Shown piece after piece: positions 8,846-23,104 of a stretch of 64,000 bases of DNA. The position numbers and the translations under genes were made by a program. This stretch comes from Planctomycetota bacterium (lineage in GTDB: Bacteria; Planctomycetota; GCA-002687715; CAIWVZ01): the NCBI GenBank assembly GCA_044222185.1, contig JBGANV010000001.1, forward strand, positions 1,789,337-1,853,336, given 5' to 3'. The notes under the pieces were generated by a model that saw only the letters and a list, made by a program, of their open reading frames with translations, had not been told where the DNA came from and made no database searches. Every line of letters begins with the position of its first letter. Within the stretch, counting starts at the first letter, position 1.

Positions 8846-10392
8846 CGGTCCTGCGAAGCCGGCTCCTCGCACCCCTGGCGTCGACCCGCGGACGCATCTT
8901 CGTGACGTGCTGGATCCTCTTCGCAGTGCACTTCGCGCCGAACGTCGTGCGTGAGCACTACCCCGCATTCGCCCTGGTCTCGAACGGGAACTACCGGCTC
9001 GACGAGTACGTCGGCTTCCACTCCGACATCTTCGTGCACCAGGGTGACGGCCACGCCTACATCAACAACAACGTCGGCGCCTCCGTCGTCGCCGCCATAC
9101 CGTTGTTGATCTTCAGGCCCGTGCTCGACGCCCTCGAAGCCCACTCCAAGCGCCTCCTGAAGGACCATCCCGCCGCCGCCGACCCGCCGTTCGTGACCAA
9201 GTATCCCAATCGCGAGAAGTTCATGCGCATCGTGCGCGAGCACGGCCTGGACCTGCGATTCGGAGCCGCGGCCGCCATCACGGCGACGCTGGTCATGGCG
9301 CCGCTTTCGGCCTTGATGGCGCTCTTCATCTTCGACCAACTCAGGCGACGCGGCGTCTCCGTGAACCGCGCGACGATCCTCTCGTTCGTCTTCGCCTTCG
9401 GGACGCCGGTCTTCTTCCGCACGGCACACCTGAACCACAACATGATGGTCATGTACGGCACGTTCGGGGCGTTCTGTGCCCTTGCAACGGCTCTCGAAGG
9501 GACGACCCCGCTGACGGATCGGCGCGCGTTCGTCGCCGGGGTCCTGTGCGGCGCCGGAACCATGTGCGACTACAGCGGCACCATCCCGACAGCCGTGTTC
9601 GGCCTGGCCGTTCTGAAGCTCTCGTGGGCCGAGGGCCTTGGGACCGCAATCCGACGTGGAGCCGTGTACTCCCTGGGCGCACTCCTCCTGATCGCCATTC
9701 AGCTCCATTCCCAGTGGGCGTGCTTCGGTTCGTGGATCCATCCGCCCCAGACCTGGATGGCCGCGGCGAACTTCACGGACCTCGGATATCGGGGGTTCGC
9801 GCCGCCGGCCCCCGATCTTCTCCTCGACAACCTCTTCGAGCACCGCTGGGGGTTGTTCGCCTACGGTCCGATCCTCGTCCTCGGGCTGTGGCCGCCGCGT
9901 CGCGCCCCGGACGCCGCTCCCGGCCTCGCGAGGCGGACGTGGGTGTTCGCCATGTCGTTTGCACTGCCGTTCATGCTGTTCTGCGCGTCGAACCAATACG
10001 CGCGGATGCAATGGAACACGGGTGTGCGCTACCTGCTGCCGCTCGTGCCGTTCCTGTTCCTCGGCGCGGCGAACGTGCTCGCGCGCCTGCCGGGCTGGCT
10101 CCTCGCGGCCATCGCCGTACCCGCCGTCCTCCACGAATGGGTCCTCTGCCTTCGGCGCGACTGCGACATCCCGGGAGATTGGGCCCAGTTCCTTCAGGCA
10201 GGTCCCCGCCTGCCGTGGCTCGACGTCCTCTCGCGATCGCCGGCAGGTCGCACGTTCGCGCCGGAGGGCTCGATGCCCGCCATGGTCGTTCTCGCACTGA
10301 CGCTGGCCGCGATCACCGGGCTGTGGTGGCTTGGCCGGAAGGCCGAGGCTCGCCGCGCCGCGACGGCTTCAACAGGAACCACAGCAGCGTGA
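8842..10392 (+). CDS. Large polytopic membrane protein, function unknown (possible polysaccharide polymerase or glycosyltransferase-associated)
   Basis: GTG start overlapping the GT4 stop (GTGA). About 12 hydrophobic helices. Located inside the polysaccharide locus. Confidence 0.55.
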   Translation: MTVLRSRLLAPLASTRGRIFVTCWILFAVHFAPNVVREHYPAFALVSNGNYRLDEYVGFHSDIFVHQGDGHAYINNNVGASVVAAIPLLIFRPVLDALEAHSKRLLKDHPAAADPPFVTKYPNREKFMRIVREHGLDLRFGAAAAITATLVMAPLSALMALFIFDQLRRRGVSVNRATILSFVFAFGTPVFFRTAHLNHNMMVMYGTFGAFCALATALEGTTPLTDRRAFVAGVLCGAGTMCDYSGTIPTAVFGLAVLKLSWAEGLGTAIRRGAVYSLGALLLIAIQLHSQWACFGSWIHPPQTWMAAANFTDLGYRGFAPPAPDLLLDNLFEHRWGLFAYGPILVLGLWPPRRAPDAAPGLARRTWVFAMSFALPFMLFCASNQYARMQWNTGVRYLLPLVPFLFLGAANVLARLPGWLLAAIAVPAVLHEWVLCLRRDCDIPGDWAQFLQAGPRLPWLDVLSRSPAGRTFAPEGSMPAMVVLALTLAAITGLWWLGRKAEARRAATASTGTTAA

Positions 10393-11629
10393 CCATGACC
10401 CAGTTGGTTGCTTCGGCGCCCACGAAGACGAGCGCCGCGCGCGGGGGATCGAGGTCACGGCCCGCGGCCGCGTAGCAGCAGATGCCGGCGGCCGTCGCCA
10501 CGAGTGCGCCGACCATCTCGCCGCGCAGCTGTCCGCGAGCGACGAGTCCGAACCGCATGTTGCCGCTGAGGAACGCGATCGCCGGCACGAGACACATGAC
10601 TTTCAGGTGACCGGCGGCAGCGGCGAAGTCCGGTCCGCCGAGGATCCCCGTAACCACTCCCGCCAGCGCGAGGACTCCGGCAATCAGTCCCACGGCGAAT
10701 CCCCCCGTGATCAGGGTCGATCGCCAGACGGCGCGCGAGAGTCGTTCGCCGCCGTCGGTTTCGTCACCGTGGGCGAGCCGGGACCACGTGGGCAGGAGGT
10801 TGAAGAACCAAAGCCACACGACGGCATGCATGGCGACGACGAGGCGGTGCGCCGCACCGAACGCGCCGATGTCGGCCGACGGGTTCGCCAGTCCGAGAGC
10901 GACCGGAGGTGCGAAGAAACGCGCGGCCCAGGCGATCGTGCTCAACGACAACGGCCACGCCTCTGCGGCGATGGCTCGCGCACCGCGCGCGGCGCCCGAG
11001 AAATCCATGGGGCCGGTGCGCAGCCGGCCGGCGATCCGATGAAACGCGACGACGATTCCACAGGCCCCGGCCTGGATGAACGGTACGCGGAGTACGTCCT
11101 GTGGTGCTCGGACGAAGAGGTTCACGCCGAGGACCATCACCGCCTGCTCCAGAAGATTGCCCAGGACGACCGTCCCCATCTCACCGCGTCCTTGGAACAG
11201 CCATTCCGTGAGGGCCGCGCGCGCCACGAGGTAGAGGGGGTAGACGAGCAGCAGACTCGTCGCGGTTGGCGAGAGGCGACCGCTCGCGGCGATCACCAGG
11301 CACGTGCCGGCGGCGACCGCGACGAGGAGCCCGCGCAGGAGCGTGATGCGGGCCACGAGCCGCGCGGCATCCGCCGGCACCCTCGCGACGGCACGCGCCC
11401 CGAACGGGCCCAGACCCGATTCGATGACGAGGGCAGCCCCGAACGTCACGTTGAATGCCACCTCGAACTGCCCGTAAACCTGGCTGCCAAGAGCTGCCGT
11501 CAAGCTGTGCAGGATGGCGTAGAACCACACCAGCTTCCCCGCCACGTCGCCCGCCACGAGGAGGACGAAACCGCGCCGAAGCCTCCGGCCGGCTGCGTTT
11601 TCCGTGGGTTGCGACGATGGATCCTGCAT
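10313..11629 (-). CDS. Wzx-like oligosaccharide flippase (MOP/polysaccharide biosynthesis protein family)
   Basis: 438 aa with ~12 TM helices. Overall architecture and context match polysaccharide-biosynthesis flippases. Its 3' end overlaps the convergent gene by 80 nt. Confidence 0.65.
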   Translation of the reverse strand: MQDPSSQPTENAAGRRLRRGFVLLVAGDVAGKLVWFYAILHSLTAALGSQVYGQFEVAFNVTFGAALVIESGLGPFGARAVARVPADAARLVARITLLRGLLVAVAAGTCLVIAASGRLSPTATSLLLVYPLYLVARAALTEWLFQGRGEMGTVVLGNLLEQAVMVLGVNLFVRAPQDVLRVPFIQAGACGIVVAFHRIAGRLRTGPMDFSGAARGARAIAAEAWPLSLSTIAWAARFFAPPVALGLANPSADIGAFGAAHRLVVAMHAVVWLWFFNLLPTWSRLAHGDETDGGERLSRAVWRSTLITGGFAVGLIAGVLALAGVVTGILGGPDFAAAAGHLKVMCLVPAIAFLSGNMRFGLVARGQLRGEMVGALVATAAGICCYAAAGRDLDPPRAALVFVGAEATNWVMVTLLWFLLKPSRRGEPRPSGQATTAR

Positions 11630-11836
11630 GGGGCGGGAGGATAACCGGGACCGCGCGCACCGGCCCCGTCATGGCCCGGCCGGGTTGTTCCGCGGGGTCG
11701 TTCCCGATTACGCTCTTCGGGTCACCCGGGCACGCAGGTGAAGCGATGCTGCGCCGCAGCGTCACGTGCCCGCGACTCGATCCGAAACGGATTGGGCCCC
11801 GGACTTCCAGTTCCGCGAGCCCCCCGGAGATTCAGC

Positions 11837-13117
11837 ATGAAGCGTCTGATCCTCCTTTGCGCCCTCGTCACGCCGATCACGTTCGGCCAGATCGTCTACG
11901 CGCCGAACACGTGCGCCGCGCCCTATCAGATCTTCGACGGCATCAATCCCCAGCCCGCCGTCAGCGGTTACGTGTTCTCGAACGCGGCCTCGCTCCCTGG
12001 CAACGAACCGGGCTTCAGCTCGGCGAGCTGCGGCTTCGGCGGCAACCCCGGGTCCCGTGACGTCTTCTTCACCTACACGGCGACGGCGTCGGGGACCATC
12101 GCGTTCCAGACCTGCACGCCGCCGGGCTTCACCGCGGGGACGTTGTCCAACACGCAAGTGACCGTCCACGACACGTCATGCCCGGGCACGCTCACGAACC
12201 TCGCCTGCAACGACGACTCCTGCGGACTCCTGTCGTCCGCGAGCCTGTCCGTCGTGTCGGGGACGACGTACTTCGTGCGCGTCGCGGGCTACGTCGGCGC
12301 CACGGGAACGTTCTACCTGACCGTCACGCCCGCCCAGCCGCCACCCGCGAACGACGCGTGTGCGAACGCGATTCCGATCACGGACGGTCTGACCACGAGC
12401 ACCTGCGTGGGTGCCGCCACGGAAGCCGGGCTCCCCGCCGCCTGCGCGACGTTCACCTCGGACGTCTGGTTCTCGTACACGAACCCCTCGTCCACCTGCC
12501 CGGCGAGCGTGACGATCGACATGTGCACCGTCACGACGAATGCCTTCGACTCCGTGCTCGTCGTGTGGACCGGCACCTGTGGGAGCCTCACGCAGCTGGC
12601 CTGCAACGATGACTTCTGCGCAGCATCAGGGGCGCCGTCGCACGTCGTCTTCGCGCTCACGCCCGGCCAGACGGTGCTGATCTCGGTGGGGGCCTGGTCG
12701 AATTCCCAGGCGTACCCCTTCGCGATGAACGTGACGCACCACACCGCCGTGACCCAGGTCGTCGGAACGAGCTGCCCGAACTCGGGAATCTCGTTCTCGA
12801 CCACGCTTCCCGTGCTGGGGCAGACGTCGACGATCTCGCTCACGGGGGCCACGCCGTCCGTGTTCGGGTCGATGTTCGTGAGCCTCCCGACGCCGGCCTA
12901 CACGCCCATCGGAGCGTGCAACGTCTACGTCGACGTCTTCACCATGTTCGAGCTGCTGCAGTTCGCCACGGACACGGCCGGCGCGCTGACGCTGACGGTC
13001 CCGCTCCCGAACGACCCGCTCCTCGAGTGCGCGAGCGTCCACCTCCAGTGCGTCGATTTCGGCGGCAGCGCCGGGTTCGAGCTCTCGAACGGCGTGCTCG
13101 TGACCTTGGGCTTCTGA
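11837..13117 (+). CDS. Secreted protein with two tandem Cys-containing repeat domains (conserved LACNDD-x-C motif)
   Basis: Signal peptide MKRLILLCALVTPITFGQ. Internal duplication of ~150 aa, each copy ending in a LACNDDSC/LACNDDFC motif followed by a short beta-rich segment. Confidence 0.55.
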   Translation: MKRLILLCALVTPITFGQIVYAPNTCAAPYQIFDGINPQPAVSGYVFSNAASLPGNEPGFSSASCGFGGNPGSRDVFFTYTATASGTIAFQTCTPPGFTAGTLSNTQVTVHDTSCPGTLTNLACNDDSCGLLSSASLSVVSGTTYFVRVAGYVGATGTFYLTVTPAQPPPANDACANAIPITDGLTTSTCVGAATEAGLPAACATFTSDVWFSYTNPSSTCPASVTIDMCTVTTNAFDSVLVVWTGTCGSLTQLACNDDFCAASGAPSHVVFALTPGQTVLISVGAWSNSQAYPFAMNVTHHTAVTQVVGTSCPNSGISFSTTLPVLGQTSTISLTGATPSVFGSMFVSLPTPAYTPIGACNVYVDVFTMFELLQFATDTAGALTLTVPLPNDPLLECASVHLQCVDFGGSAGFELSNGVLVTLGF

Positions 13118-13139: not shown

Positions 13140-14084
13140 GTGAACGCGCCCGACTCCGAGCACGACCTGCCCGCACTCTCGGTGATCCTCACCGTCGTCA
13201 GCGGGCTCCCGTCCGTGCGACGCACGCTTTCGGCGCTGGCACCGATCGCCGGCGACGTCGAAATCCTCGTCCCGGTCGAGTCGGAGCGGCGAGACGTGCT
13301 GGACCTCGCCGCCCAGTTCCCCGGGGTCCGATTCCTCGACCTGGGCGTCCTCCCGCTCGACGCCCGCAACCCGGGGCCCGAGCGCGAGCACGAGTGCTAC
13401 GACCGCCGCCGCGCCGCGGGCGTCCTCGCCTCACGAGGCTCCGTGATCGCGATCCTCGAGGACCACGGGACGCCGGCACCAGGCTGGGCCGAAGCCGTGA
13501 TCGCAGCCCATCGCCGCCTCCCGCACGCGGCCATCGGCGGCGTGGTCACCAACGCGATCCACAGGCCGCGACAGGACGCGCTGTGGCTTTGCGACTTCCA
13601 CCGCTACGCCCCCCCAAGGCCGCCCGGGCCCACCAACGCGCTGACGGACGTGAACGTCTCGTACAAGCGCCCCCCGCTGTTCGCTCTGAAAGCGTGTTGG
13701 CATGACCGCTACCACGAACCCGTCGTCCACTCCGGCCTTCTGCAAGGCGGCGAAATCCTCTGGCTGGATCCGCAGCTCGTCATCGCCCAGGAACGACCGG
13801 AGCGGAGCCTCGGCGCACTCGTCGCCGAGCGGTACGCCTGGGGTCGCCTTTTCGGCGTCATCCGTGCGGGCATCCTCCCGAGATACGCGTCCAGACTGAT
13901 GGGCGTGGCCGCGCTCGCGCTCCCACCGCTGCTTTTGTGGCGAATCCTGCGGTCGGCCCCCGGTCGGATCCCGTTCGGGCGTCTCCTTCGCGCGCTCCCG
14001 TGGCTGAGCCTGCTCGTCACCGCCTGGTCGGTCGGCGAGTCGGCGGGCTGCCTTCGCGGCCGGTCTCGGGACTCCCTCCCTTGA
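13140..14084 (+). CDS. Divergent GT2-like glycosyltransferase
   Basis: N-terminal LSVILTVVSG...DVEILVPVES resembles the GT2 Rossmann-like start. The rest is weakly similar and the C-terminus is hydrophobic. Confidence 0.5.
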   Translation: MNAPDSEHDLPALSVILTVVSGLPSVRRTLSALAPIAGDVEILVPVESERRDVLDLAAQFPGVRFLDLGVLPLDARNPGPEREHECYDRRRAAGVLASRGSVIAILEDHGTPAPGWAEAVIAAHRRLPHAAIGGVVTNAIHRPRQDALWLCDFHRYAPPRPPGPTNALTDVNVSYKRPPLFALKACWHDRYHEPVVHSGLLQGGEILWLDPQLVIAQERPERSLGALVAERYAWGRLFGVIRAGILPRYASRLMGVAALALPPLLLWRILRSAPGRIPFGRLLRALPWLSLLVTAWSVGESAGCLRGRSRDSLP

Positions 14085-14119
14085 GCCCGCTACAATCCCC
14101 GGCCGATCAAAGAGATGCG

Positions 14120-15028
14120 ATGAGTGCAGCGAAGTCGGAAGAGGGCCGGCCTCACCCGGAGGTCACCGTCGTGATCCCTGCCTACAACGAGCGGGACGGG
14201 ATTGCGCGGACGGTCCGCGAGATCAACTCCGTCCTTTCGGGGGCGGGGATCGCGTTCGAGGTCATCGTCGTCGACGACGGCTCGACCGACGGCACCCCCG
14301 AGGCCGCGGAGGCCGAGGCCTGTCGCGTGATCCGCGCCCACCGGAACTCGGGGTACGGGGCGTCCCTGAAGCGTGGGATCGCGGCGGCGCATTCGGACCG
14401 CATCGCGATCATCGACGCCGACGGCACCTACCCGGCGACGGCGTTGCCCGAACTCGTGCGGCGCTCGCGCACCGTCGACATGGTCGTCGGCGCCCGGACG
14501 GGGCAGAACGTCAACATCCCGCTCCAGCGTCGACCCGCGAAGGCGTTCATCACGTGGCTCGCGGGCTACCTCTGCGGGCGGCACATCCCCGATCTGAACT
14601 CCGGGCTGCGCATCTTCCGTCGCAAGCACGCGCTGCGGTTCGCGCGCATCCTGCCCGCCGGCTTCTCCTTCACGACGACGATCACGCTCGCGCTGCTCTG
14701 CAACGACTACGCCGTCGACTACGTGAGCATCGATTATCACAAGCGGATCGGGACGTCGAAGATCCGCGCACGCCACGCCTACGACTTCACGCTCCTGATC
14801 CTCCGGTGCATCGTCCTCTTCAATCCGCTGAAGGTCTTCCTGCCCGTCGGCGCCGTGCTCGCGATCCTCGGGTTCGCGAAGTTCATCTACGACTGCATGA
14901 AGGAGAATCTCAGCGAGAGCGCCGTCATGTGCATCCTCGGCGCCATCATCGTCTGGTGCGTGGGCCTGCTCGCCGACCAGAACACGCGCCTCGGGCTGGA
15001 CCCCCGCGCGTGGGACGAAGAGGACTGA
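14120..15028 (+). CDS. Polyprenyl-phosphate sugar synthase-type GT2 (GtrB/ArnC/DPM1-like) with C-terminal TM helices
   Basis: VTVVIPAYNE, VVDDGSTDGT and IIDADGTYP motifs. Two C-terminal TM helices. Start chosen at MSAAKSEE after the upstream stop. Confidence 0.8.
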   Translation: MSAAKSEEGRPHPEVTVVIPAYNERDGIARTVREINSVLSGAGIAFEVIVVDDGSTDGTPEAAEAEACRVIRAHRNSGYGASLKRGIAAAHSDRIAIIDADGTYPATALPELVRRSRTVDMVVGARTGQNVNIPLQRRPAKAFITWLAGYLCGRHIPDLNSGLRIFRRKHALRFARILPAGFSFTTTITLALLCNDYAVDYVSIDYHKRIGTSKIRARHAYDFTLLILRCIVLFNPLKVFLPVGAVLAILGFAKFIYDCMKENLSESAVMCILGAIIVWCVGLLADQNTRLGLDPRAWDEED

Positions 15029-15034
15029 CGGGCC

Positions 15035-16012
15035 ATGCCGAGTCGCCGCGCCCTGAAGGTCGGGATCAAGCTCGTGCTCACGGCCGTCGCCCTCGTCGTC
15101 GTGCTCCGATGGGTGGGTGCGGACAACGTGCGGCAACTGCTGCGGTCGGTTTCCGTCGTCGACTGGACGATCAGCCTGGCGCTCTTCTGCACGATCCACG
15201 CGGTCGCCAGCCTCAAATGGCGGCTGTTCATCGGACTGTGCGGAGGTCGACTCTCGGTCGGGGCCACGTTGCGCTGCTACGCCGCGGGGCTGTTCGCAAA
15301 CCTCTGCCTGCCGTCCATGATCGGTGGTGACGTCATGCGCGCGGGTCTCGCGGCGAAGGCGAACAAGCGGAAGGAAGCCGTCGTCCTCGGAAGCCTCGTC
15401 GATCGATTCTCCGATTTCGTCGGTCTCGCGCTCATCGCGGTCTGGGGACTCCTCCTCGCGATCTCCGGCTCGACCGGAAGCCAGGGCTCCATCGACACGG
15501 GAAAGAACACCCTCGTCGCGTTCTTCGTCAGCGCGGCGGCCCTCGTCGTCGGGGTCGTCATCCTGACACGACTCCGCCCCAAGCCTTCGTGGCCCCCCAG
15601 GGTCCGGTTCGCCATGCTTCGCGGCGCGCTCGCGGTGAGGAAGCTGCGGCGTCGCGGCCTGACGGCGGCTCTCGGCCTCTGCGCATCGGCAGCGTTGCAG
15701 GTGGCACTGCTCCTCGTCCACCGGCGACTGGCCGTCACCATGGGGATGCCCGCGAGTCTCCCGGCATGGTTGTTCGTCTGGCCACTCGCGAAGATCGCAG
15801 CCATGCTGCCGCTCAGCCTGGGCGGTCTCGGTGTCCGCGAGGCGGCGTTTGCGTCGCTCGGAGCCGGCATGGGGTTCCCGAAGGATCTCGCGGTTGCGTG
15901 CTCACTCGCCTGGCAGTGCGTTCTGATCAGCGGAGGACTCGTCGGAGGTGCCATCTGGGGTCTCTACCGCGAGCCGTCGCGCCGCGCGCAGGCGGAGGTC
16001 GCGACACCATGA
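15035..16012 (+). CDS. UPF0104/YbhN-family membrane protein (lysyl-PG-synthase TM-region-like, flippase-like)
   Basis: 325 aa with ~8 TM helices. Its sequence character is that of the family often paired with GtrB-like GT2 enzymes. ATGA overlap with the next gene. Confidence 0.6.
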   Translation: MPSRRALKVGIKLVLTAVALVVVLRWVGADNVRQLLRSVSVVDWTISLALFCTIHAVASLKWRLFIGLCGGRLSVGATLRCYAAGLFANLCLPSMIGGDVMRAGLAAKANKRKEAVVLGSLVDRFSDFVGLALIAVWGLLLAISGSTGSQGSIDTGKNTLVAFFVSAAALVVGVVILTRLRPKPSWPPRVRFAMLRGALAVRKLRRRGLTAALGLCASAALQVALLLVHRRLAVTMGMPASLPAWLFVWPLAKIAAMLPLSLGGLGVREAAFASLGAGMGFPKDLAVACSLAWQCVLISGGLVGGAIWGLYREPSRRAQAEVATP

Positions 16013-17433
16013 GCGAACCGCACGTCGTCATCCTCGGCAGCGGGCCCGCGGGACTCGGTGCCGCCTACCGCCTTCGGCGCGACCTCGGAGTCCGCGCAAC
16101 GGTGCTCGAGCAGGCCCCGAGCGTCGGCGGATGCGCCGGCGGTTTCGAGTTCGAAGGCATCCACTGCGACTTCGGAAGCCATCGGCTCCACCCGAGCACG
16201 CCGCCGGACGTCATGGCCGACATCCGGTCCCTCCTGGGTCCGGACCTCCTCGATCGGCCGCGCCATGGACGGATCCGTCTCATGGGTCGCTGGATCCACT
16301 TCCCGTTGAAGCCCCTCGACCTGGCGCTCCGAGCGCATCCGCGATTCGGGCTGGGCGTCGTGAAGGACGGCCTCACGAAAGCCCTCGGCAGGCGCGCGAG
16401 CGCATCCCCGGAGACGTTCGCATCGATCCTCGAGTCGGGCCTCGGCTCCACGATCTGCCGCCAGTTCTACTTCCCCTACGCATGGAAGATGTGGGGGCAG
16501 GACCCGGTGACACTCTCTCCGATCCAGGCGCGCAAACGTGTCTCCGCAGGCTCACTCGGCCGCATGGTGAAACGGATCCTGGGCGCAGTGCCCGGGTTCA
16601 AGAAGCCAGGCTCGGGGCGATTCTTCTACCCGAAGCAGGGCTTCGGTCAGATCTGTCGTGCCTACCACGAAGCGGCGACGCGGCTTGGGGCCGAGTTCAC
16701 GATGAAGGCTCGAGTCACCGCCATCGATCGCGACGCACGCGGCGTGACCGGAGTGCGCTACGAGTCCGAAGGCGTCGAGCGCAGGATCGACACCGGGCAC
16801 GTCTGGTCGACGATCCCGATCACGCGGCTTGCGTCCATGCTTGCGCCTCCGCCGCCTGGCGAGATCGTGCGCGCCGCCAGCGCGATCACGTTCCGCTCCA
16901 TGGTGCTCGCGTACCTGGTGGTGCCCGTGAGCCAGTTCACCGAGTTCGACGCCCATTATTTTCCGGAGACGGAGATCCCGTTCACGCGGCTGTCTGAACC
17001 GAAGAATTACTCGGTGAGCACGGAGCCGCCCAAGACCACCATCCTGTGCGCGGAGATCCCGTGCGCGCGAACCGACGCCGTGTGGACCATGTCGGATGAG
17101 GACCTGGGCCGGCTCGTCTCCGACGGACTGGCGAAGGCCGGACTTCGACTGCCGGCGCCTCCCATCCGCGTGGCATCACGCCGACTCGAGAACGCCTACC
17201 CGATCTACGGCATCGGCTACGAGCAGGCGTTCGACGCGCTCGATGCGTGGGTGGCGGAGATCCCAGGCCTGCTGAGCTTCGGTCGCCTCGGCTTGTTCGC
17301 ACACGACAACACTCATCACGCTCTGCACATGGCGTACGCAGCGACGAGCTGCCTCGCCCGCGACGGACGATTCGATACAAAAGCGTGGGCCGGACACCGT
17401 GACGCATTCCGTGCGCACGTCGTCGAGGACTGA
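16009..17433 (+). CDS. FAD-dependent flavoenzyme of the UDP-galactopyranose mutase-like type (NDP-sugar pyranose/furanose mutase candidate)
   Basis: N-terminal VVILGSGPAGLGAAYRL Rossmann motif. YAWKMWG matches the YTxKQWG signature of UDP-galactopyranose mutases (I recall E. coli Glf as GYTEKQWG). PFTRLSEPKNY matches the PYTRIIEHKHF pattern that I recall in Glf. Confidence 0.55.
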   Translation: MSEPHVVILGSGPAGLGAAYRLRRDLGVRATVLEQAPSVGGCAGGFEFEGIHCDFGSHRLHPSTPPDVMADIRSLLGPDLLDRPRHGRIRLMGRWIHFPLKPLDLALRAHPRFGLGVVKDGLTKALGRRASASPETFASILESGLGSTICRQFYFPYAWKMWGQDPVTLSPIQARKRVSAGSLGRMVKRILGAVPGFKKPGSGRFFYPKQGFGQICRAYHEAATRLGAEFTMKARVTAIDRDARGVTGVRYESEGVERRIDTGHVWSTIPITRLASMLAPPPPGEIVRAASAITFRSMVLAYLVVPVSQFTEFDAHYFPETEIPFTRLSEPKNYSVSTEPPKTTILCAEIPCARTDAVWTMSDEDLGRLVSDGLAKAGLRLPAPPIRVASRRLENAYPIYGIGYEQAFDALDAWVAEIPGLLSFGRLGLFAHDNTHHALHMAYAATSCLARDGRFDTKAWAGHRDAFRAHVVED

Positions 17434-17449
17434 CGCTGGAGACGCTCTC

Positions 17450-18430
17450 ATGAAGATCCTGATCACCGGCGGTGCCGGATTCGTAGGCTCGCATCTCTGC
17501 GAAACGCTCGTCGCACGCGGGCACGAACTCGTGGTCATCGACGACCTCTCGACGGGTCGGATCGAGAACATCGCCCACCTGGAGAAGAGCGGGAAGGTCC
17601 GCATCGTCGTCGACAGCGTCGCCCGCGAATCGCTCGTCGAGGAACTGGTGCGCGCGACTGACAAGGTTTTCCACCTCGCCGCCGCCGTCGGCGTCAGACT
17701 GATCCTCGAACAGCCGACTCACACGATCGAGACGAACATCGCGGGAACGGAGGTCGTCCTCCGCTACGCGTCGCGCTATCGCCGGCCCGTGCTGATCACT
17801 TCCACGTCCGAGGTCTACGGAAAGAGCGAGCACGTCCCCTTCCGCGAGGAGGACGACGTGCTGCTCGGGCCGACGAACCGCCAACGCTGGGCGTATGCGG
17901 CATCGAAGATGGTCGACGAGTTTCTCGCGCTCGCGTACTGGCAGGAAAAGCGCCTCCCGGTCGTGATCGCACGGCTTTTCAACACCGTGGGCCCGCGCCA
18001 GACCGGCCGCTACGGCATGGTCATTCCGCGGCTCGCGGCCCAGGCCATCGCTGGCGAGCCCCTCACCGTTTACGGCGACGGCGAGCAGAGCCGCTGCTTT
18101 GGCTCCGTGCGCGACGTCGTCGAGGGTCTCGCTCGACTCATGGACTGCGAAGGCGCCATCGGCGAGGTCGTGAACCTGGGCAACCCCCAGGAAGTGACGA
18201 TCAACGAGCTCGCACGGTTGATCATCGAGATCGCAGGCAGCCGCTCCGAAGTCCGGCACATCCCGTACGACCAGGCCTTCGCGGCCGGATTCGAGGACAT
18301 GCGGCGGCGCATTCCCGACATCACCAAGGCCCGGCGACTGATCGGATTCGAGCCGAAGGACGACCTGCGAAGCATCATCACGGCCGTGGTCGCCGATCAG
18401 CGCAAGCGCGGTCGCAACCATGACGGCTGA
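17450..18430 (+). CDS. UDP-glucuronate decarboxylase (UDP-xylose synthase, UXS-type extended SDR)
   Basis: ILITGGAGFVGSHL, STSEVYG, ARLFNTVGPR, LTVYGDGEQSRCF and VNLGNPQE align closely with eukaryotic and bacterial UXS enzymes. Confidence 0.8.
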   Translation: MKILITGGAGFVGSHLCETLVARGHELVVIDDLSTGRIENIAHLEKSGKVRIVVDSVARESLVEELVRATDKVFHLAAAVGVRLILEQPTHTIETNIAGTEVVLRYASRYRRPVLITSTSEVYGKSEHVPFREEDDVLLGPTNRQRWAYAASKMVDEFLALAYWQEKRLPVVIARLFNTVGPRQTGRYGMVIPRLAAQAIAGEPLTVYGDGEQSRCFGSVRDVVEGLARLMDCEGAIGEVVNLGNPQEVTINELARLIIEIAGSRSEVRHIPYDQAFAAGFEDMRRRIPDITKARRLIGFEPKDDLRSIITAVVADQRKRGRNHDG

Positions 18431-19910
18431 GACGCCGCCCGCCGCGCCGGCCGCGAACGCTCACACGCCGTTGCGGGACGCGCGGGTCCGCGCGGTGCTC
18501 GCGGACGGGGGCTGGGCATTGGCCATCATCGTCGGCGCGGCGCTCGCGCTGAGGATCTTCCAGCTCGGCACGCAACTTTGGCTCGATGAAGTGCTCATGC
18601 TCGGCGAGCTCGTACGCAAGCCGTTCGGCGAGATGATCACGAGCTATCGCACGGACAACCAGCACCCGCTGTACACGGCCCTCGCCTGGGTTTCGGTCCG
18701 GATGTTCGGCGAAGCGGCGTGGGCTCTCCGCCTGCCTGCGGCCCTCTTTGGGACCGCAGCCGTCGCCGCGTCGTTCGTGTTCGTCAGGCGCGTCGCCGAC
18801 CGAGGCATCGCGCTGCTGGTCGCCGCCGTGATGGCGGTCTGGTACCACCAGATCTGGTTCAGCCAGAACGCCCGCGCGTACACGGCGCTCCTCTTCTTCG
18901 CGCTGCTGTCGGTGGGCCGCTGGCGCGATCTCTGGCGTGGGGATCGGGGCGCCCTCCCCTGGTACGCGGCGTGGACGGCTCTCGCCGCGTACTCGCACCT
19001 GACGGGGGCGTTCCTGGCCGTCGGCGCCTTGCTCGCATGGGTCGTCGGCCGCGTGCGAGCGAGAACCGGGTGGCTGCCGCTGGCCGGCATCGTCCTCGCG
19101 GGCGCGGGCGCGCTCGCGCTGCACGGCCCCATGCTCGGCGAGATGTGGCATTTCTTCGCCGGGCGGCCGGACCGCGTCGCCAAGGCTTCCGAGTGGAAGA
19201 GCCCGCTGTGGACCCTCACGACCCTCGTGCAGGGACTCGGCGCGCGGTCACTCGCCCTGGCAGCCGTTCCCGGACTCATCGCGGTCGTGGCACTTCTGCA
19301 CGGGATGCGCCGCGTGGCGCGGCGTGATCCCGGGACGGTGCTCGCCATGATCCTTCCCGGCGTCGTCGGCGCCGCCGTCACGCTCGGGCTCGGTCGGCAC
19401 CTGTGGCCTCGGTTCTTCGTGTTCCAATCGACGTTCGTCCTCTGGCTGGGGCTCGAAGGCGTGAGGCCAGCATTCGAAGCGATCGTCGGGAGGATCGCGG
19501 GCGCCGGTGCCCGTGCGTCGTGGATCAAGACGACAGCGGCGACACTCGTCGTCGTCGCGGGCCTGGTCACCGCGCGGAACGTCTACGAGACCAAGCAGGA
19601 CTTCGAGAGCCCGCGCGAGTACGTGCGCTCCCACCGTGCCCCCGACGAACCCGTGTTCACGGCGGGGCTCGCAACCTGGCCGTATCAGTACCTCTACGCG
19701 CCCGAGTTCGAGCCTGTCCAAGACGCCGCCGAGTTCGAACCCGCGCTCGGTCGGCCTTCACGCGCGTGGCTGATCTACGCCTCCGAGATCTTCATGAAGG
19801 CGAATCGGCCGGCCGTGTGGGAGGTCGTCGCATCCCGCTTCGAGGTCGTGCAGCGCTGGCCCAGCTCGCTTGGCGAAGTCGTGCTGTGCCGCGAGAAGTC
19901 CGAGCGATGA
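18420..19910 (+). CDS. GT-C fold glycosyltransferase of the ArnT/PMT (GT39/GT83) type
   Basis: 496 aa, ~11 TM helices. N-terminal loop with a DE-containing motif (WLDEVLM) after the first TM, as in ArnT/PMT proteins. 11-nt overlap with the UXS gene. Confidence 0.65.
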   Translation: MTAETPPAAPAANAHTPLRDARVRAVLADGGWALAIIVGAALALRIFQLGTQLWLDEVLMLGELVRKPFGEMITSYRTDNQHPLYTALAWVSVRMFGEAAWALRLPAALFGTAAVAASFVFVRRVADRGIALLVAAVMAVWYHQIWFSQNARAYTALLFFALLSVGRWRDLWRGDRGALPWYAAWTALAAYSHLTGAFLAVGALLAWVVGRVRARTGWLPLAGIVLAGAGALALHGPMLGEMWHFFAGRPDRVAKASEWKSPLWTLTTLVQGLGARSLALAAVPGLIAVVALLHGMRRVARRDPGTVLAMILPGVVGAAVTLGLGRHLWPRFFVFQSTFVLWLGLEGVRPAFEAIVGRIAGAGARASWIKTTAATLVVVAGLVTARNVYETKQDFESPREYVRSHRAPDEPVFTAGLATWPYQYLYAPEFEPVQDAAEFEPALGRPSRAWLIYASEIFMKANRPAVWEVVASRFEVVQRWPSSLGEVVLCREKSER

Positions 19911-19919: not shown

Positions 19920-20987
19920 TCACGACTCCTTCGCGAGAGTCCGGAGGATCGCTGCGGCGCACTGATCGAGCGGGACGACTTCTTCCGCGCCGCCAAGGGC
20001 GATCGCTTCCTTCGGCATCCCGAACACGACGCAGCTCGCCTCGTCCTGGGCGAAGGTGTGAGCCCCGGCCTTGCGCATCGCGAGTAGCCCCTTCGCGCCG
20101 TCGTTTCCCATCCCGGTGAGGATCGCGCCCACGGCGTTGCGCCCGAGGAACTGCGCGCACGAATCGAAGAGCACGTCCACGGACGGGCGGTGGTGATTCA
20201 CTGGCGCGCCCTCGAAGACGCGCACCGAATAGTGGGCACCGCTGCGCTCGACGGCCATGTGGAAGTTGCCCGGCGCGATCAACGCCTGGCCGGGAATGAT
20301 GCGATCCCCGTTCGCCGCCTCCCGGACACGGATCTTGCACAGCCCGTCCAGTCGTTCGGCAAACCACTTGGTGAACTTCTCGGGCATGTGCTGGACGATG
20401 ACGATGCCGGGGCAGTCTGCCGGAACGCGCGTGAGGACCTCGCGGAGGGCTTCCGTCCCACCGGTCGAGGCGCCGATGGCGATGACCTTGTCGGTGCTTC
20501 GGATGAGCGCGCCCGACGGCGCCGGCGCGGACGGCGCCACATCACCGACGGTGCGAACGATCGACGGTCGCGAGCGCGGCCGAAGCCGAGCCGTCGCTGC
20601 ACTCTTCACCTTGGCGACGATCTCTCCCGCCAGGTCCACGGTGCCGGCGCGAACGTCGATCTTCGGTTTCGTGACGAAGTCGACGGCGCCGAGCTCCAAC
20701 GCGCGCAGCGTCGTCTCGCACGAGCGCTCCGTGAGCGAAGAAATCATGACGACCGGCATGGGATAGGCGCGCATGAGCTTCTCGAGGAAGCTCAAACCGT
20801 CCATGCGTGGCATCTCCACGTCCAGCGTCAGCACGTCGGGCTTCAGCTGCCGGATCTTGTCGACGGCCGCCACCGGATCGGGGGCCGACCCCACGACTTC
20901 GAGATCCGAATCGCGCGCCAGGATGTCCGTCAGGAGCTGGCGAACCAGGGCCGAGTCGTCGATGACCAGAACTTTCGTCTTCGCCAT
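19920..20987 (-). CDS. cheB: Chemotaxis response regulator protein-glutamate methylesterase CheB
   Basis: REC domain ([13 protein letters not shown]...DVEMPRMDG) plus C-terminal methylesterase with GASTGG and the catalytic His/Asp region. Confidence 0.9.
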
Positions 20988-21012
20988 GTTCGGGAATCCG
21001 TTCGGTTTCGAC

Positions 21013-22785
21013 TCAAGGCAGATGGACTTCGGGGTCCCTCTGCCACTGGAATTCGGCCACGACCTCGTTGCCCGCACCACGGAAGGCCACGCTGCGGCAG
21101 ATGGATGCCACGAGCGCGATCCCTCGCCCGCTGGGCGCCGTGAGCGAACACTCGGCGATCGCCTTCAGGGACGAGTAGTCGAATCCCTTGCCGCTGTCCT
21201 TGATGGAGATGGTGAGCAGGCCGCCGCCCTCGACCGTGACGTGATCGAGCTTGATCTTGACGCTCCCGGACTTGAGCTTGGCGAGCGCCGCCGCGCGAGC
21301 GGTGAAGTACTTCTCGAACCCATCGGGTTCGCCCTTCAGGTTCGAACTGAGCCCGAGGACCCCGTGATCGATCGCGTTGCTGACGAGCTCGGCGAGTACG
21401 AGGAACAGGGTCTCCTTCTGCCCCTCGAATCCCTGGAGGTCCGTCACGAGACGGCCCAGCAAAGGGAGAGGGTCCGTGGACTGGATCGCGTCTGCGTGGA
21501 GCTCGAGCTCCACGGTCCAGTGCGTTGACGGCCGCACACCCGGACCGAGCCCACGCGGCGAGCGACGCTTGCCTTGGATGGCCGCGTCTGCTCGAAGCTC
21601 GATCAGGGTCTGATCGTCCGCCTGGGCCTGGCTCTCGCCGAATGCCGTCACGGCTTCGATCAGGGCCTCGAAGGCCCGCTCCGGGTCCTCCTGCGCAGTG
21701 AGGATGGCAGCGATGCGATCCATCCCGAACATCTCTCCCGCGCGATTCGACGCCTCCGGAAGGCCGTCCGAGAAGAAGTAGATCCGATCACCGTCCTTGA
21801 TGCTGACGGTTTCGGTTTCGAGGTTCAGCGCCGTGTCGTCCAGGATGCCGAGCGGCGGCTGGAGCGATCGGAAACTTGCGACGGCCCCCGCCCTCGGACG
21901 AACGATCATTCCGTCGGGCACACCGGCATTCAGCACGGTGAGCGCGCCGCCCACCGCGTCCAACTCGATCAGGCATGCAGCGAGGAACAGGCCGGCGGGC
22001 ATGACCGCCTTCAGCCTGCGGTTGATCTCGCGCGCGATGTCGAGGATCGAGAAGCCGCGCTCCGTCATGCTGTAGAAGATCTCGGCGACTGACAGCGTGC
22101 CCGTCGCGGCCGGCAACCCGTGACCGGCGAAGTCCCCGATGAGAGCGTTCTGCGCACCGTTGGGACGCCAGGCTGCCAGGAGGAGGTCTCCGTGAAACAC
22201 CTCCGCGGGCGCCAGCAGGTACTTGATGTTGGGGGCGTCCAGGTTCCCCGTGCGTACGAGTCGTTTGAACAGGTCGCGAGCAACCTCCTGCTCGCGGCGG
22301 ACACGCGCGCCGTGTCGGTTGAGTTCGTCGTTCTGCGCGATGATCCGGTCGTTCAGCCGGCTGATCCGGACCATGGCAGCCATCTTCGCCTCGAGCACCG
22401 TCGGGCGGAGCGGCTTCGAGAGGAAGTCGTCTCCCCCGGCTTCGACGCACTTGGCGATGCGCGCATCGCTGAGCGTGTTCGTCACGAAGATGATCGGCAC
22501 GAACCGAGCGCCGGAGATCGCCTTGATGCGCCGGGCGGACTCGAACCCGTCCATGACGGGCATTTCGCAATCCAGGATCACGCAGTCCGGCTGGTGGAGC
22601 TGGTAGAGGACCACCGCCTCCGCGCCGTTCTTGCTCTCCACGACGTCGCAGTTCTGCGAACGGAGCATGGCCACGAGGATCATGCGATCCGCGCGGTCAT
22701 CCTCGGCGATGACGACCTTCAGGCGCTTGCGGGGCGCCGCCCTCACGAGGTCGCACGTCCCGGGAATCGTCGCAGTCCCGCTCAT
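21013..22785 (-). CDS. Tripartite receiver - PP2C (SpoIIE/RsbU-like) phosphatase - RsbW-like GHKL serine kinase/anti-sigma domain protein
   Basis: N-terminal REC ([11 protein letters not shown]...DCEMPVMDG). Central PP2C-like region (GDFAGHG, FFSDG). C-terminal HATPase-like boxes ([25 protein letters not shown]). Confidence 0.8.
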
Positions 22786-22798
22786 GGGAGCGTCGCCC

Positions 22799-23104
22799 TC
22801 AGGCGATCTTGAAGAGCTTCTGGAAGTTGGCGACGTTCAAGATCTTCGCCACGTTGGGCTTCGCCCGGGCGAGCGTGACGTCAGCACCGTCACCGCCCGC
22901 ATCCTGCTTGAGAAGCAAGAGCATGCCGAGCGCTGAGCTGTCCATGTACTCGGTCCGTGACAGGTCGACGACGACCCGGCGCGGCTTCGGCTGAACGTCG
23001 GCGTACGCGTGGCGGAATTCGTTGTGGACGCTGAAATCGAATCGACCTTCGACTCCGATCGTGATCACGCCGCCGTCCGGCGACACCGTTGCACTGATAG
23101 CCAT
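22799..23104 (-). CDS. STAS-domain anti-sigma-factor antagonist (SpoIIAA/RsbV-like)
   Basis: 101 aa. DLSRTEYMDSSALGMLL motif with the conserved phosphorylatable Ser context. Confidence 0.8.
   Translation of the reverse strand: MAISATVSPDGGVITIGVEGRFDFSVHNEFRHAYADVQPKPRRVVVDLSRTEYMDSSALGMLLLLKQDAGGDGADVTLARAKPNVAKILNVANFQKLFKIA

Follow-up and report, generated by a model that had tools for sequence, protein, structure and literature searches.

A putative polyprenyl-phosphate-sugar-dependent extracytoplasmic glycosylation locus with a UGM-like flavoenzyme, conserved in several bacterial phyla

Extracytoplasmic addition of a sugar by a GT-C enzyme from a polyprenyl-phosphate donor has been described for Citrobacter youngae O1/O2 (GT136) and for mycobacterial decaprenyl-P-arabinose (PMC11127046). 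The PRPP-based pathways start from PRPP, use a UbiA-like synthase and a MATE flippase, and epimerise the pentose while it is lipid linked; a mutase or GT2 route is not mentioned in that source (PMC11127046). The UDP-beta-L-arabinofuranose locus of Campylobacter jejuni HS:15 encodes a UXS-type decarboxylase and an FADH2-dependent pyranose mutase, with a UDP-glucose dehydrogenase and a C4-epimerase as further requirements of the pathway (PMC10615251). An archaeal neighbourhood combines AglD-like GT2, UPF0104 and PMT-STT3-like genes, the PF03706 protein being a predicted flippase (Makarova et al. 2015, PMC5898192). We examined a block of six genes within a 64-kb stretch of DNA (the window), for which a first-pass annotation had proposed a polyprenyl-phosphate pentose/furanose glycosylation operon.

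All six co-directional ORFs of that proposal were found on the plus strand between positions 13140 and 19910, with a spacing of -11 to +35 nt. Third-codon-position G+C values of 0.81 to 0.87, in surrounding DNA of 67% G+C, indicated that the six ORFs are coding. A 35-nt gap separates the first gene (13140-14084) from the second (14120-15028), whose ATG start at 14120 lies outside gene 1, and a gap of 6 nt precedes the third (15035-16012). The stop of the third gene and the start of the fourth (16009-17433) share a 4-nt ATGA overlap, a 16-nt gap leads to the fifth (17450-18430), and the stop of the latter overlaps the start of the sixth (18420-19910) by 11 nt. A convergent cheB, ending at 19920, lies directly past the block. 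No terminator-like or sigma-70-like sites were found within 13140-19910, a scan that constitutes weak evidence. Coordinates, strand and junctions bore out an operon-like arrangement.

The first gene product (GT2a) was only weakly GT2-like, its sub-threshold Pfam GT2 match (E = 0.0063) scoring 16.9 bits where 23.3 bits are required, and no NCBIfam match was obtained; its original labelling as a GT2 was retained in this weaker form. The second product (GT2b; Pfam GT2, 3.2e-28) was of the ArnC/DPMS/GtrB type of polyprenyl-phosphate GT2, with two C-terminal hydrophobic helices (residues 223-259 and 263-288). Its best PDB matches were ArnC (2e-18), Pyrococcus furiosus DPMS (6e-15) and GtrB sll0501 (2e-12), in agreement with the GtrB/ArnC-like label that it had been given. 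NCBIfam matches to AglJ, Dol-P-hexose transferase, ArnC and PpgS, of which the archaeal AglJ and Dol-P-hexose transferases ranked highest, all fell below their equivalog cut-offs. The third product (LPGtm) is an MprF-type flippase-like membrane protein (LPG_synthase_TM/UPF0104; Pfam PF03706, 2.5e-30; TIGR00374, 7.8e-15) with at least six hydrophobic helices; we know of no PF03706 protein with polyprenyl-phosphate flippase activity. The sixth product was a GT-C glycosyltransferase of the PMT_2 family (1.7e-6; score 28.8 bits, cut-off 26.1), and the PF03706 and PMT_2 matches thus both exceeded their cut-offs. At least seven hydrophobic helices, a DE pair after TM1 and a weak match to Agl23 (TIGR03663) were detected in this protein, with no PDB sequence match and no ArnT equivalog match; the GT-C part of its earlier description as ArnT-like stood, but it was not recognisable as ArnT. 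Overall, the Pfam, NCBIfam and PDB matches and the hydrophobic helices supported a three-component logic of GT2, flippase-like protein and GT-C.

The fourth gene encodes a predicted cytoplasmic FAD enzyme (FLAV). It belongs to a UGM-like family, PRK07208 of NCBIfam, that is uncharacterised and labelled "hypothetical". Both peptide motifs previously cited as UDP-galactopyranose mutase (UGM) signatures, YFPYAWKMWGQDP and IPFTRLSEPKNYS, were present, and the nearest characterised relatives were eukaryotic-type UGMs. Sequence and profile scores favoured UGM by 8 to 11 orders of magnitude; Foldseek placed PPO level with UGM. The Pfam GLF score of 23.1 fell below the cut-off of 26.3, and the TIGR00031 cut-off was also missed. 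Residue invariance was read over 55 FLAV family members, with the Aspergillus fumigatus UGM numbering given first. FLAV retained the His loop of UGM, its two diphosphate-binding arginines and the arginine for NADPH, and the invariant residues were His63 = H58, Arg91 = R88, Trp167 = W162, Arg182 = R177, Tyr419 = Y397, Arg447 = R426, Asn457 = N434 and His460 = H437, together with Tyr317, Arg327 and Tyr334 (A. fumigatus numbering). Uridine contacts (Y104F, Q107K, N163A) and sugar contacts (F66H, W315A) were replaced, as were two further positions (G62S, Y453H), and the replacements F98, K101, A158, H61, A315 and H432 were invariant in the family when compared with the A. fumigatus and Trypanosoma cruzi UGMs. 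The enzyme did not fall into an amine-oxidase/CrtI clade devoid of UGM active-site residues, and the conserved residues supported a mutase-like assignment for FLAV.

FLAV is not a canonical UGM, in view of the sub-cut-off GLF score and the replaced uridine and galactose contacts. According to their entry titles, mutant crystal structures of UGM cover H63, F66, Y104, Q107, R182, N207, Y317 and R327, and these eight positions correspond to invariant FLAV-family residues or to nearby positions; complexes with NADPH and NADH were also among the titles. A sister family, FLAV2 (hhalign E 2e-56), has the canonical GGH and GRxGxxxYxNQDH motifs, matched the UGM of A. fumigatus at 4e-31 and those of bacteria at 7e-14, and carries C-terminal membrane helices.

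Neighbourhoods were counted at 51 fully flanked FLAV loci from at least five phyla (including Acidobacteriota, Gemmatimonadota, Planctomycetota, Chloroflexota and Desulfobacterota). A GT2b orthologue lay upstream of FLAV in 41 of the 51 and a GT-C orthologue was present in 36, while GT2a orthologues (100 to 314 bits) occurred in 21 and also in L087. LPGtm was found in 26 loci and was mutually exclusive with a PEMT/ICMT-like gene that replaced it in the same slot in 13 of the 51 (17 of 66 loci having at least 2.5 kb upstream); one or other gene was present in 38/51. This replacement raises the possibility that the slot has a function other than that of a flippase. The conserved same-strand order was GT-C, GT2b, LPGtm or PEMT-like gene, and FLAV, and the recurrence of four of the six genes in the same order and strand beside FLAV in 36 to 41 of the 51 loci indicated an arrangement above chance. 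The core is conserved over several little-studied bacterial phyla.

The fifth gene encodes an extended SDR with a UDP-uronic-acid decarboxylase (UXS-type) signature. Human UXS1 was the best PDB match (2e-56, 40% identity), ahead of the ArnA C-domain (4e-37), and every UXS1 catalytic residue was kept (T-S-E, YxxxK, FNT and Arg277), within the conserved motifs GGAGFVGS, TSTSEVYG, YAASK, FNTVGPR and QSRCF. The UXS-type designation was thereby upheld, and grouping with dTDP-glucose dehydratases (RmlB, 1e-21 to 1e-27) was disfavoured. The SDR lies outside the conserved core module. It adjoins the flavoprotein in only about three lineages and is absent from most FLAV loci, and 76 relatives (53 to 62% identity) sit in unrelated contexts away from FLAV, so that unrelated neighbours, named at the outset as evidence against a common unit, were encountered for this one gene. 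Fourteen of these 76 adjoin a UDP-HexNAc-type (UDP-ManNAc/GlcNAc-type) 6-dehydrogenase, which suggested that the substrate may not be UDP-GlcA and, together with the prevailing separation from FLAV, that the FLAV link may be incidental. A UXS-like SDR was found beside FLAV or FLAV2 plus GT-C in seven loci (L007, L019, L034, L087, L090, L157 and L165), which represent independent lineages. In four acidobacterial loci, a UDP-GlcA 4-epimerase-like SDR lies beside FLAV instead. No C4-epimerase, as needed for an arabino or galacto configuration, was present.

The system extends beyond the six genes, and the limits originally set for it were too narrow. Upstream on the plus strand lie a GT4 glycosyltransferase (7598-8845; Pfam Glycos_transf_1, 3.8e-23, and Glyco_transf_4) and a 516-residue polytopic membrane protein (M516; 8842-10392). 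GT4 orthologues (335 to 419 bits) were found near the flavoprotein in L016, L020, L034, L049, L050 and L084, and in L157 one adjoins the SDR and FLAV2; the GT4 is probably a member of a wider conserved glycan module. M516 had no Pfam family and no PDB sequence match. The top Foldseek hits of its AF2 model (pLDDT 92.1) were all GT-C enzymes (Pmt4, AglB, Pmt1/2, ArnT, ALG9 and STT3; probability 1.00, TM 0.4-0.48), orthologues occurred in 22/51 full loci, and in P0288 and P0325 the protein is fused to a GT2 domain. This modelled GT-C fold suggests that M516 is probably a second polyprenyl-phosphate-sugar-dependent transferase. A Wzx-type flippase gene (10313-11629; Polysacc_synt, 1.1e-13) lies on the opposite strand and was detected in 16/51 related loci. 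The Cys-rich secreted protein of 459 residues encoded on the plus strand at 11738-13117, ending 22 nt 5' of gene 1, has a hydrophobic N-terminal segment (residues 36-56) and showed a faint GBD_T9SS_assoc match only; no orthologue was found among 160 related loci, and this lineage specificity makes it doubtful as a member of the system. The window also encodes LpxA, LpxC-FabZ, LpxD and BamA, indicating that lipid A exists in the organism. The block is best explained as the core of a larger surface-glycan locus that includes the GT4, the second GT-C-fold protein and Wzx.

The reading that we favour, with a confidence somewhat short of even, is a three-component polyprenyl-phosphate-sugar-dependent extracytoplasmic glycosylation system with a UGM-like flavoenzyme. 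In this lineage, a UDP-pentose would be formed when the SDR decarboxylates a UDP-hexuronic acid, which could be UDP-GlcA or perhaps UDP-GlcNAcA; this step and its coupling to the next are suggested by the SDR and FLAV genes being neighbours in a few lineages. FLAV, with reduced FAD, would then remodel an NDP-sugar in the cytoplasm, most likely by pyranose-to-furanose ring contraction of a substrate that is not UDP-galactose-like, as active-site conservation suggests. Family membership and conserved synteny point to the remaining steps, in which GT2b would place the sugar onto polyprenyl phosphate at the inner membrane face, the MprF-like protein would carry the lipid-linked sugar outward, and the PMT_2 GT-C, probably with M516, would transfer it to a periplasmic acceptor. 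As the SDR lies outside the conserved module, the chain from UDP-pentose through furanose to lipid carrier rests on adjacency in this lineage. The involvement of a pentose and of a furanose is an inference, and lipid A, LPS and protein are only candidate acceptors.

FLAV could instead be a true oxidoreductase that acts after GT2b on a lipid-linked sugar or the polyprenyl carrier, either in a DprE1/DprE2-like pair, in which FLAV would oxidise a hydroxyl and an SDR would then convert the ketone by reduction into the epimer, or as an isoprenoid saturase or desaturase. The membrane helices of FLAV2, the tight ATGA junction of FLAV with a membrane-protein gene, the alternation of a PEMT/ICMT/steroid-reductase-clan membrane protein in the adjoining slot, the adjacency of FLAV and SDR in the window and the epimerisation of lipid-linked pentose in PRPP-based systems are consistent with such a role. 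We consider it unlikely, however, in view of the scores favouring UGM, the nature of the kept residues (the diphosphate-binding, NADPH-binding and His-loop residues of UGM) and an SDR whose Glu and Arg are those specific to decarboxylases and which is not consistently found with FLAV. DprE1 has a VAO-type flavoprotein fold, which differs from that of FLAV.

It is improbable that FLAV is a divergent UGM producing UDP-Galf, with the SDR serving GT4 and GT2a and having no tie to FLAV. UGMs are the nearest characterised relatives, the SDR orthogroup is widespread in other contexts, and the locus has further Leloir-type glycosyltransferases needing nucleotide sugars; but the replacements at uridine and galactose contacts are invariant, GLF is below cut-off, FLAV accompanies a polyprenyl-phosphate GT2 and GT-C and not Leloir galactofuranosyltransferases, and several unrelated lineages have a UXS-like SDR next to FLAV or FLAV2. 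Little credence is likewise given to an Arn/Lgm/Flm-like charge modification, in which polyprenyl phosphate would carry an amino- or N-acetyl-pentose, such as XylNAc formed by the SDR from UDP-GlcNAcA, for transfer to lipid A/LPS, with FLAV as an accessory. The 6-dehydrogenase beside 14/76 SDR relatives, deacetylases in eight FLAV loci, ArnC as the best solved relative of GT2b and the existence of lipid A would fit this explanation, as would L157, where the SDR and FLAV2 are accompanied by a polysaccharide deacetylase (ArnD/NaxD-like) and by two half-transporters of the EamA type (ArnE/F-like). However, the window has no deacetylase, aminotransferase, formyltransferase or sugar 6-dehydrogenase (the lack of an aminotransferase and a formyltransferase having been correctly noted at the outset), the GT-C has neither an ArnT equivalog nor a PDB sequence match, and Chloroflexota (Anaerolineae), believed to lack LPS, carry the module as well.

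The favoured glycosylation system resembles the GtrA/GtrB/Gtr-type, CsbB/GtcA/YfhO and ArnC/ArnE-F/ArnT systems in that a GT-C and a candidate flippase are encoded together with a polyprenyl-phosphate GT2 that has two helices at its C-terminus. It differs from them in that the candidate flippase is of the MprF/UPF0104 type and not GtrA, SMR or EamA, a UGM-like flavoenzyme is conserved as a fourth component, the loci often contain a second GT-C-fold protein, which is unclassified, and every NCBIfam equivalog cut-off is missed. An ArnA-C/UXS-class decarboxylase, an ArnC-like GT2 and a GT-C are shared with the Arn (L-Ara4N) pathway, whereas ArnB aminotransferase, formyltransferase and ArnD deformylase are missing from the window, UXS is the nearer relative of the SDR and the GT-C is not recognisably ArnT. 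Compared with the eukaryotic-type UGMs of A. fumigatus and T. cruzi, FLAV has about 20% identity and a GLF score under the cut-off, and its family is linked with GT-C/GT2 membrane systems. The C. jejuni HS:15 locus likewise has a UXS-type decarboxylase and an FAD mutase-type enzyme, but with a bacterial Glf-type mutase and cytoplasmic Leloir transferases in place of a polyprenyl-phosphate/GT-C route. PRPP-based pentofuranose systems share extracytoplasmic GT-C transfer from a polyprenyl-phosphate donor and cytoplasmic tailoring enzymes, whereas here the sugar would enter by way of a GT2 that depends on a nucleotide sugar, and a UGM-like enzyme takes the tailoring role. The archaeal neighbourhood contains the same triad of GT2, PF03706 membrane protein and GT-C, to which the bacterial locus adds a flavoenzyme, and in both the flippase role is a predicted one.

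The six plus-strand genes at 13140-19910 are best read as a three-component lipid-linked glycosylation system that includes an uncharacterised and very widespread flavoenzyme family, FLAV. The genes were recovered with a third-position G+C filter and an ORF list in a window of ~67% G+C, and their boundaries agreed with those of the first-pass annotation. The description of six co-directional genes that abut or overlap was confirmed, with junctions of +35, +6, -4, +16 and -11 nt. The start of the second gene, GT2b, was placed at the ATG at 14120, 35 nt past the stop of gene 1, and the -4-nt junction between 15035-16012 and 16009-17433 is an ATGA overlap. The block ends at 19910, and a convergent cheB gene ends at 19920. 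A sequence scan, which is weak evidence in this respect, detected no terminator-like or promoter-like sites inside the block. A reading of these genes as a hopanoid cluster (HpnA/B/E/L-like) was rejected; the matches scored 15 to 71 bits against cut-offs of 196 to 379 and were mostly partial along each protein, and there was no cyclase.

Conservation of the module was examined in a survey of FLAV loci using one genome per species, which gave 80 loci with FLAV orthologues of 51 to 63% identity from Acidobacteriota, Gemmatimonadota, Planctomycetota, Chloroflexota, Desulfobacterota and a few other groups. The ORFs of each locus were searched with the window proteins, the neighbours were clustered, and 51 loci in which FLAV had 6 kb or more on each side were taken as a fully flanked set. 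Orthologues of GT2b were present in 41 of these loci and of the PMT_2 GT-C in 36, while those of M516 (a 516-aa GT-C-fold membrane protein encoded at 8842-10392 on the plus strand) and GT2a were found in 22 and 21, respectively, and Wzx in 16. The usual order on one strand was GT-C, GT2b, a PF03706 or PEMT-like gene, and FLAV. A unit of GT2 synthase, flippase candidate and GT-C was observed in same-strand order in 36 to 41 of the 51 loci, spanning at least five phyla, and independent look-ups gave the same arrangement for Desulfogranum japonicum and for two MAGs, one from Gemmatimonadota and one from Anaerolineae. FLAV loci without these orthologues still had other GT-C genes (PMT_2 and YfhO).

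The two GT2 proteins differed in how well they could be assigned. GT2a (13140-14084) exhibited a faint similarity to Pfam GT2 (E 0.006, under the cut-off) and no NCBIfam match. GT2b (14120-15028) matched Pfam GT2 at 3e-28, with 99.2 bits against a cut-off of 23.3, and its closest solved relatives in a PDB sequence search were ArnC (2e-18), archaeal DPMS (6e-15) and cyanobacterial GtrB (2e-12). A DxD motif (IDADG) was read from the sequence, and two C-terminal hydrophobic helices were located at residues 223-259 and 263-288. As judged from these features, the architecture of GT2b is that of the polyprenyl-phosphate glycosyltransferases of the ArnC/GtrB/DPMS type. No characterised NCBIfam equivalog (ArnC, AglJ, PpgS, PgfS and others) was reached, with scores over cut-offs of 92.9/325, 67.5/529 and 62.5/370.

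The third gene (15035-16012) encodes a polytopic protein with at least six hydrophobic helices that matched PF03706 with 106.4 bits (cut-off, 33.4) and TIGR00374 with 55.1 (cut-off, 43.2). This protein is thus assigned to the 'flippase-like' membrane proteins of the MprF type, for which translocation of a polyprenyl-phosphate sugar is a predicted function. For an archaeal neighbourhood of GT2, UPF0104 and GT-C genes, Makarova et al. predicted that the PF03706/UPF0104 protein flips lipid-linked sugars (PMC5898192). The slot between GT2b and FLAV was occupied by a PF03706 gene in 26 of the 51 fully flanked loci and by a PEMT/ICMT-like gene in 13, and one or the other was present in 38. The alternative gene encodes a membrane protein of ~200 aa from the PEMT/ICMT/steroid-reductase clan. 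In the 66 loci that had 2.5 kb or more of upstream sequence, PF03706 and PEMT-like genes were mutually exclusive (33 versus 17 loci, with both present in 1). The occurrence of a PEMT-like gene in the same position either questions the 'flippase' label for this slot or hints at carboxyl methylation or lipid modification.

The last gene of the block (18420-19910) encodes a protein with at least seven hydrophobic helices and an acidic pair (LWLDEV) after the first helix. It passed the PMT_2 (PF13231) cut-off narrowly, at 28.8 bits versus 26.1, so the GT-C part of its earlier designation as an 'ArnT-like GT-C' was upheld. The likeness to ArnT found no counterpart in detectable similarity, as there was no ArnT NCBIfam match and no PDB sequence match at E <= 10. 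M516 likewise lacked a Pfam family and a PDB sequence match at E <= 10. Its AF2 model had a pLDDT of 92, and the only high-probability structural matches were GT-C enzymes (Pmt4, AglB, ArnT, ALG9 and STT3). Two related proteins, P0288 and P0325, have M516 fused to a GT2 domain. An assignment of this domain as GT2a was rejected; it was weakly GT2b-like, with 28% identity over 111 residues. No sequence similarity was detectable between M516 and the PMT_2 GT-C. M516 is most likely a second polyprenyl-phosphate-sugar-dependent transferase and looks like a member of an unclassified GT-C family.

FLAV (16009-17433) belongs to a large family, with 5,880 relatives at E <= 1e-10 in a word-indexed search and 5,399 at E <= 1e-3 in an exhaustive search of 50%-identity representatives. 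The best 120 of the 5,880 were 55 to 65% identical and came from several phyla; the only names attached to relatives were 'FAD-dependent oxidoreductase' and 'protoporphyrinogen oxidase'. The Pfam matches were to Amino_oxidase, DAO and NAD_binding_8, and the NCBIfam placement was PRK07208, a 'hypothetical protein'. Comparison with solved structures pointed to the UDP-galactopyranose mutases (UGMs): in a phmmer search of the PDB, eukaryotic-type UGMs led at 1e-14, with PPO at 5e-6, and the family profile gave 1e-22 for eukaryotic-type UGMs and 1e-11 for carotene desaturase and PPO.

Active-site residues were mapped by HMMER alignments and a bridging profile of FLAV2, the sister family of FLAV. 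The residues of Aspergillus fumigatus UGM that were kept (FLAV numbering in parentheses) were H63 (H58), R91 (R88), W167 (W162), R182 (R177), Y317, R327, Y334, Y419 (Y397), R447 (R426), N457 (N434) and H460 (H437). The FAD motif GSGPAG, G56-S57-H58, R177, R327, Y317, Y334, Y397 and R426 were invariant in 55 FLAV sequences, and the histidine loop was GSH rather than GGH. In UGMs, the kept residues make up the diphosphate clamp, in which R182 and R327 bind the diphosphate, together with the NADPH site and the histidine loop. The structural matches listed included UGM mutant crystal structures at H63, R182, Y317, R327, F66, Y104, Q107 and N207, together with NADPH and NADH complexes of A. fumigatus UGM. 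A second set of positions was replaced invariantly or nearly so: G62 (S57), F66 (H61), Y104 (F98), Q107 (K101), N163 (A158), W315 (A315) and Y453 (H432). Of these, Y104, Q107 and N163 face uridine, and F66 and W315 galactose, in A. fumigatus UGM. With the catalytic residues kept and the uridine and galactose contacts replaced, FLAV is UGM-like in its catalytic apparatus and should bind a different sugar; it perhaps also binds a different nucleotide or carrier. The proposal of a UGM-like mutase was therefore sustained for the catalytic residues, and both quoted UGM-signature peptide motifs were found in the protein. It did not extend to membership of the family, as FLAV missed the cut-offs for GLF (PF03275; 23.1 bits versus 26.3) and TIGR00031 (18.8 versus 303.75) in addition to having altered substrate contacts. 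FLAV was not classed as a UGM, and redox-neutral interconversion of pyranose and furanose by its reduced flavin is a predicted property.

FLAV2, at ~615 aa, is paralogous to FLAV (27% identity; hhalign E 2e-56) and has membrane helices at its C terminus. It carries the canonical UGM motifs GGH and GRNGLHRYNNQDH, and its profile scored 4e-31 against A. fumigatus UGM and 7e-14 against E. coli UGM. Anchoring in the membrane is unusual for a UGM-like enzyme. FLAV2 genes were located in the related loci L009 (3190-5028), L157 (5486-7333) and L165 (1592-3439) and also in L017, L020, L042, L049 and L062, and they adjoin genes for PMT-type GT-Cs, a 114- to 134-aa protein and a polysaccharide deacetylase. 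In L157 (1-8956), two GT4 genes, the second of which is orthologous to window 7598-8845, are followed by two EamA half-transporters (ArnE/F-like) and a UXS-like SDR; an IS element (transposase) separates this SDR from FLAV2, after which come a small ORF and a polysaccharide deacetylase. By analogy, this gene set is reminiscent of Arn.

The SDR at 17450-18430 had been annotated as a UDP-glucuronate decarboxylase (UXS), and this was borne out by its signature. Human UXS1 was the best solved relative (2e-56; 40% identity), ahead of the ArnA C-domain (4e-37), UDP-GlcA 4-epimerase (3e-32) and the dTDP-glucose dehydratases of the RmlB type (1e-21 to 1e-27); in this ranking by PDB similarity scores, the SDR did not group with the dehydratases. 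Alignment with human UXS1 indicated retention of GGAGFVGS, the Thr/Ser-Glu pair (TSTSEVYG), YAASK, FNTVGPR and the Arg of QSRCF, and hence of GxxGxxG, the catalytic Thr/Ser-Glu, YxxxK, Asn176 and Arg277 (human UXS1 numbering). The lead of UXS1 and the retained catalytic motifs mark the SDR by signature as a UDP-uronic-acid decarboxylase.

Only three loci had a UXS-type SDR (TSEVYG) close to FLAV: the Planctomycetota locus L007, the Gemmataceae locus L034 and the Bryobacterales locus L019, where the SDR and a PMT_2 GT-C form a unit convergent with FLAV. Four acidobacterial loci (L012, L041, L047 and L060) had, in place of the UXS-like SDR, an SSSSVYG SDR ~1.5 kb downstream of FLAV on the opposite strand, whose best PDB matches were 5u4q and the UDP-glucuronate 4-epimerases BcUGAepi and MoeE5. 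As the motif expression for SDR classes caught only 9 SDRs, the counts of 3 UXS-like and 4 UDP-GlcA-epimerase-like neighbours are lower bounds. Both enzyme types use UDP-GlcA, which hints at sugars derived from uronic acids.

A reverse test started from the window SDR and took its 80 best metagenomic relatives. Four were 75 to 77% identical; three of these (L087, L089 and L090) repeat the cluster, in whole or in part, on short contigs, and the fourth lies on a 1.3-kb contig (L088) with little besides the SDR gene. The other 76 (53 to 62% identity) were not in this cluster. Fourteen of the 76 (within L092-L152) had an NDP-sugar 6-dehydrogenase of the UDP-ManNAc/GlcNAc type 1 to 2 kb downstream, nearest to UDP-ManNAc/UDP-GlcNAc dehydrogenases and under their equivalog cut-offs, and two adjoined FLAV2. 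This association suggests UDP-GlcNAcA as a further possible substrate, in a role like that of a UDP-XylNAc synthase, so that the SDR could act on either UDP-GlcA or UDP-GlcNAcA. The absence of an aminotransferase, remarked on in the first-pass annotation, held across the 64-kb window, in which no sugar dehydrogenase, C4-epimerase or deacetylase was found either, and no nucleotide-sugar 6-dehydrogenase was detected in the window or the FLAV loci. The small number of FLAV loci with an SDR and the 76 relatives elsewhere indicated that the SDR, a widespread enzyme, has joined the module in a few lineages and is not one of its core components.

The case for a three-component glycosylation system consists of family membership, active-site conservation and synteny, from which we infer each chemical step. 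GT2b would attach a sugar to polyprenyl phosphate; exposure of the lipid-linked sugar to the periplasm would fall to the PF03706 protein or to some other factor, and the PMT_2 GT-C and M516 would pass it to a periplasmic acceptor. Preparation of the donor is most likely the task of FLAV, by a flavin-dependent ring contraction of an NDP-sugar, and a UDP-pentose may come from the UXS-like SDR in this lineage. Genes for LpxA, an LpxC-FabZ fusion, LpxD and BamA are present at 36208-42516 on the minus strand, which marks the organism as a diderm that makes lipid A, so that both lipid A and LPS are possible acceptors here. Anaerolineae, in which the module also occurs, are not known to have LPS; if they indeed lack it, the general acceptor cannot be LPS. 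A 459-aa Cys-rich secreted protein with an internal repeat and no Pfam domain is encoded at 11738-13117 (+) and ends 22 nt before gene 1. No orthologue was found in any related locus, and this protein could be a lineage-specific acceptor or unrelated.

Several other features of the window were recorded. A second large secreted protein without Pfam domains flanks the glycan genes at 5900-7576 (+). Upstream of the glycan locus, at 1312-2340 (-), 3-845 (+), 846-1340 (+) and 4135-5750 (+), are genes for a GT2 with a C-terminal membrane domain (MftF/EpsD-like, under the cut-offs), two Pfam-less membrane proteins and a BlaI/BlaR1-type repressor-sensor pair. A chemotaxis-like cluster at 19920-32559 (-) encodes CheB, a response regulator-PP2C (SpoIIE)-HATPase protein, a STAS protein, a CheR-CheD fusion, two MCPs, CheA-CheW, CheY and a further MCP-like protein; partner-switching elements (PP2C, an anti-sigma-kinase-like domain and STAS) within a che operon are notable. 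An 856-aa ORF at 32108-34678 (+), which is G+C-rich at third positions and matches no Pfam family, overlaps the opposite-strand MCP-like gene at 31420-32559. Two further ORFs of this kind, 48210-49304 and 49049-50761, lie in 48210-50761 (+); they overlap each other, so gene calls there are uncertain.

A wider reading is possible but doubtful in our judgement. FLAV and the membrane-anchored FLAV2 would form new clades of pyranose-furanose mutases that depend on flavin and are specialised for polyprenyl-phosphate/GT-C glycosylation; these either make an NDP-furanose for the GtrB/ArnC-like GT2 or contract the ring of the lipid-linked sugar, with the MprF-type protein as the flippase. Extracytoplasmic furanosylation would then proceed from nucleotide sugars, by a route separate from those that use PRPP and MTA, and this route would be found widely among Acidobacteriota, Gemmatimonadota, Planctomycetota, Chloroflexota and Desulfobacterota. 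Three-component systems add sugars to LPS, teichoic acids, arabinan and proteins and are a driver of both antigenic variation and antibiotic resistance. A conserved UGM-like enzyme tied to a polyprenyl-phosphate GT2 and GT-Cs would suggest a third route to lipid-linked furanose donors, besides those from PRPP and methylthioadenosine. It would also give the first functional handle on the FLAV family, with its more than 5,000 database relatives (not all of them demonstrated orthologues), and a handle on bacterial PF03706 proteins outside MprF and on a new GT-C-fold family. The carriers belong to phyla that are abundant in soil and sediment and about whose envelope glycans almost nothing is known.

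Among the known lipid-linked pentofuranose donors, some derive from methylthioadenosine. Others are derived from PRPP via UbiA-like synthases and epimerised on the lipid (PMC11127046). Our literature search found no description of the present gene set or of a UGM-like enzyme acting together with a polyprenyl-phosphate GT2 and a GT-C. A UXS and a flavin mutase are known together in C. jejuni, but that pathway needs an epimerase and feeds cytoplasmic transferases (PMC10615251). The logic of the module is that of the Gtr, CsbB-GtcA-YfhO and Arn systems.
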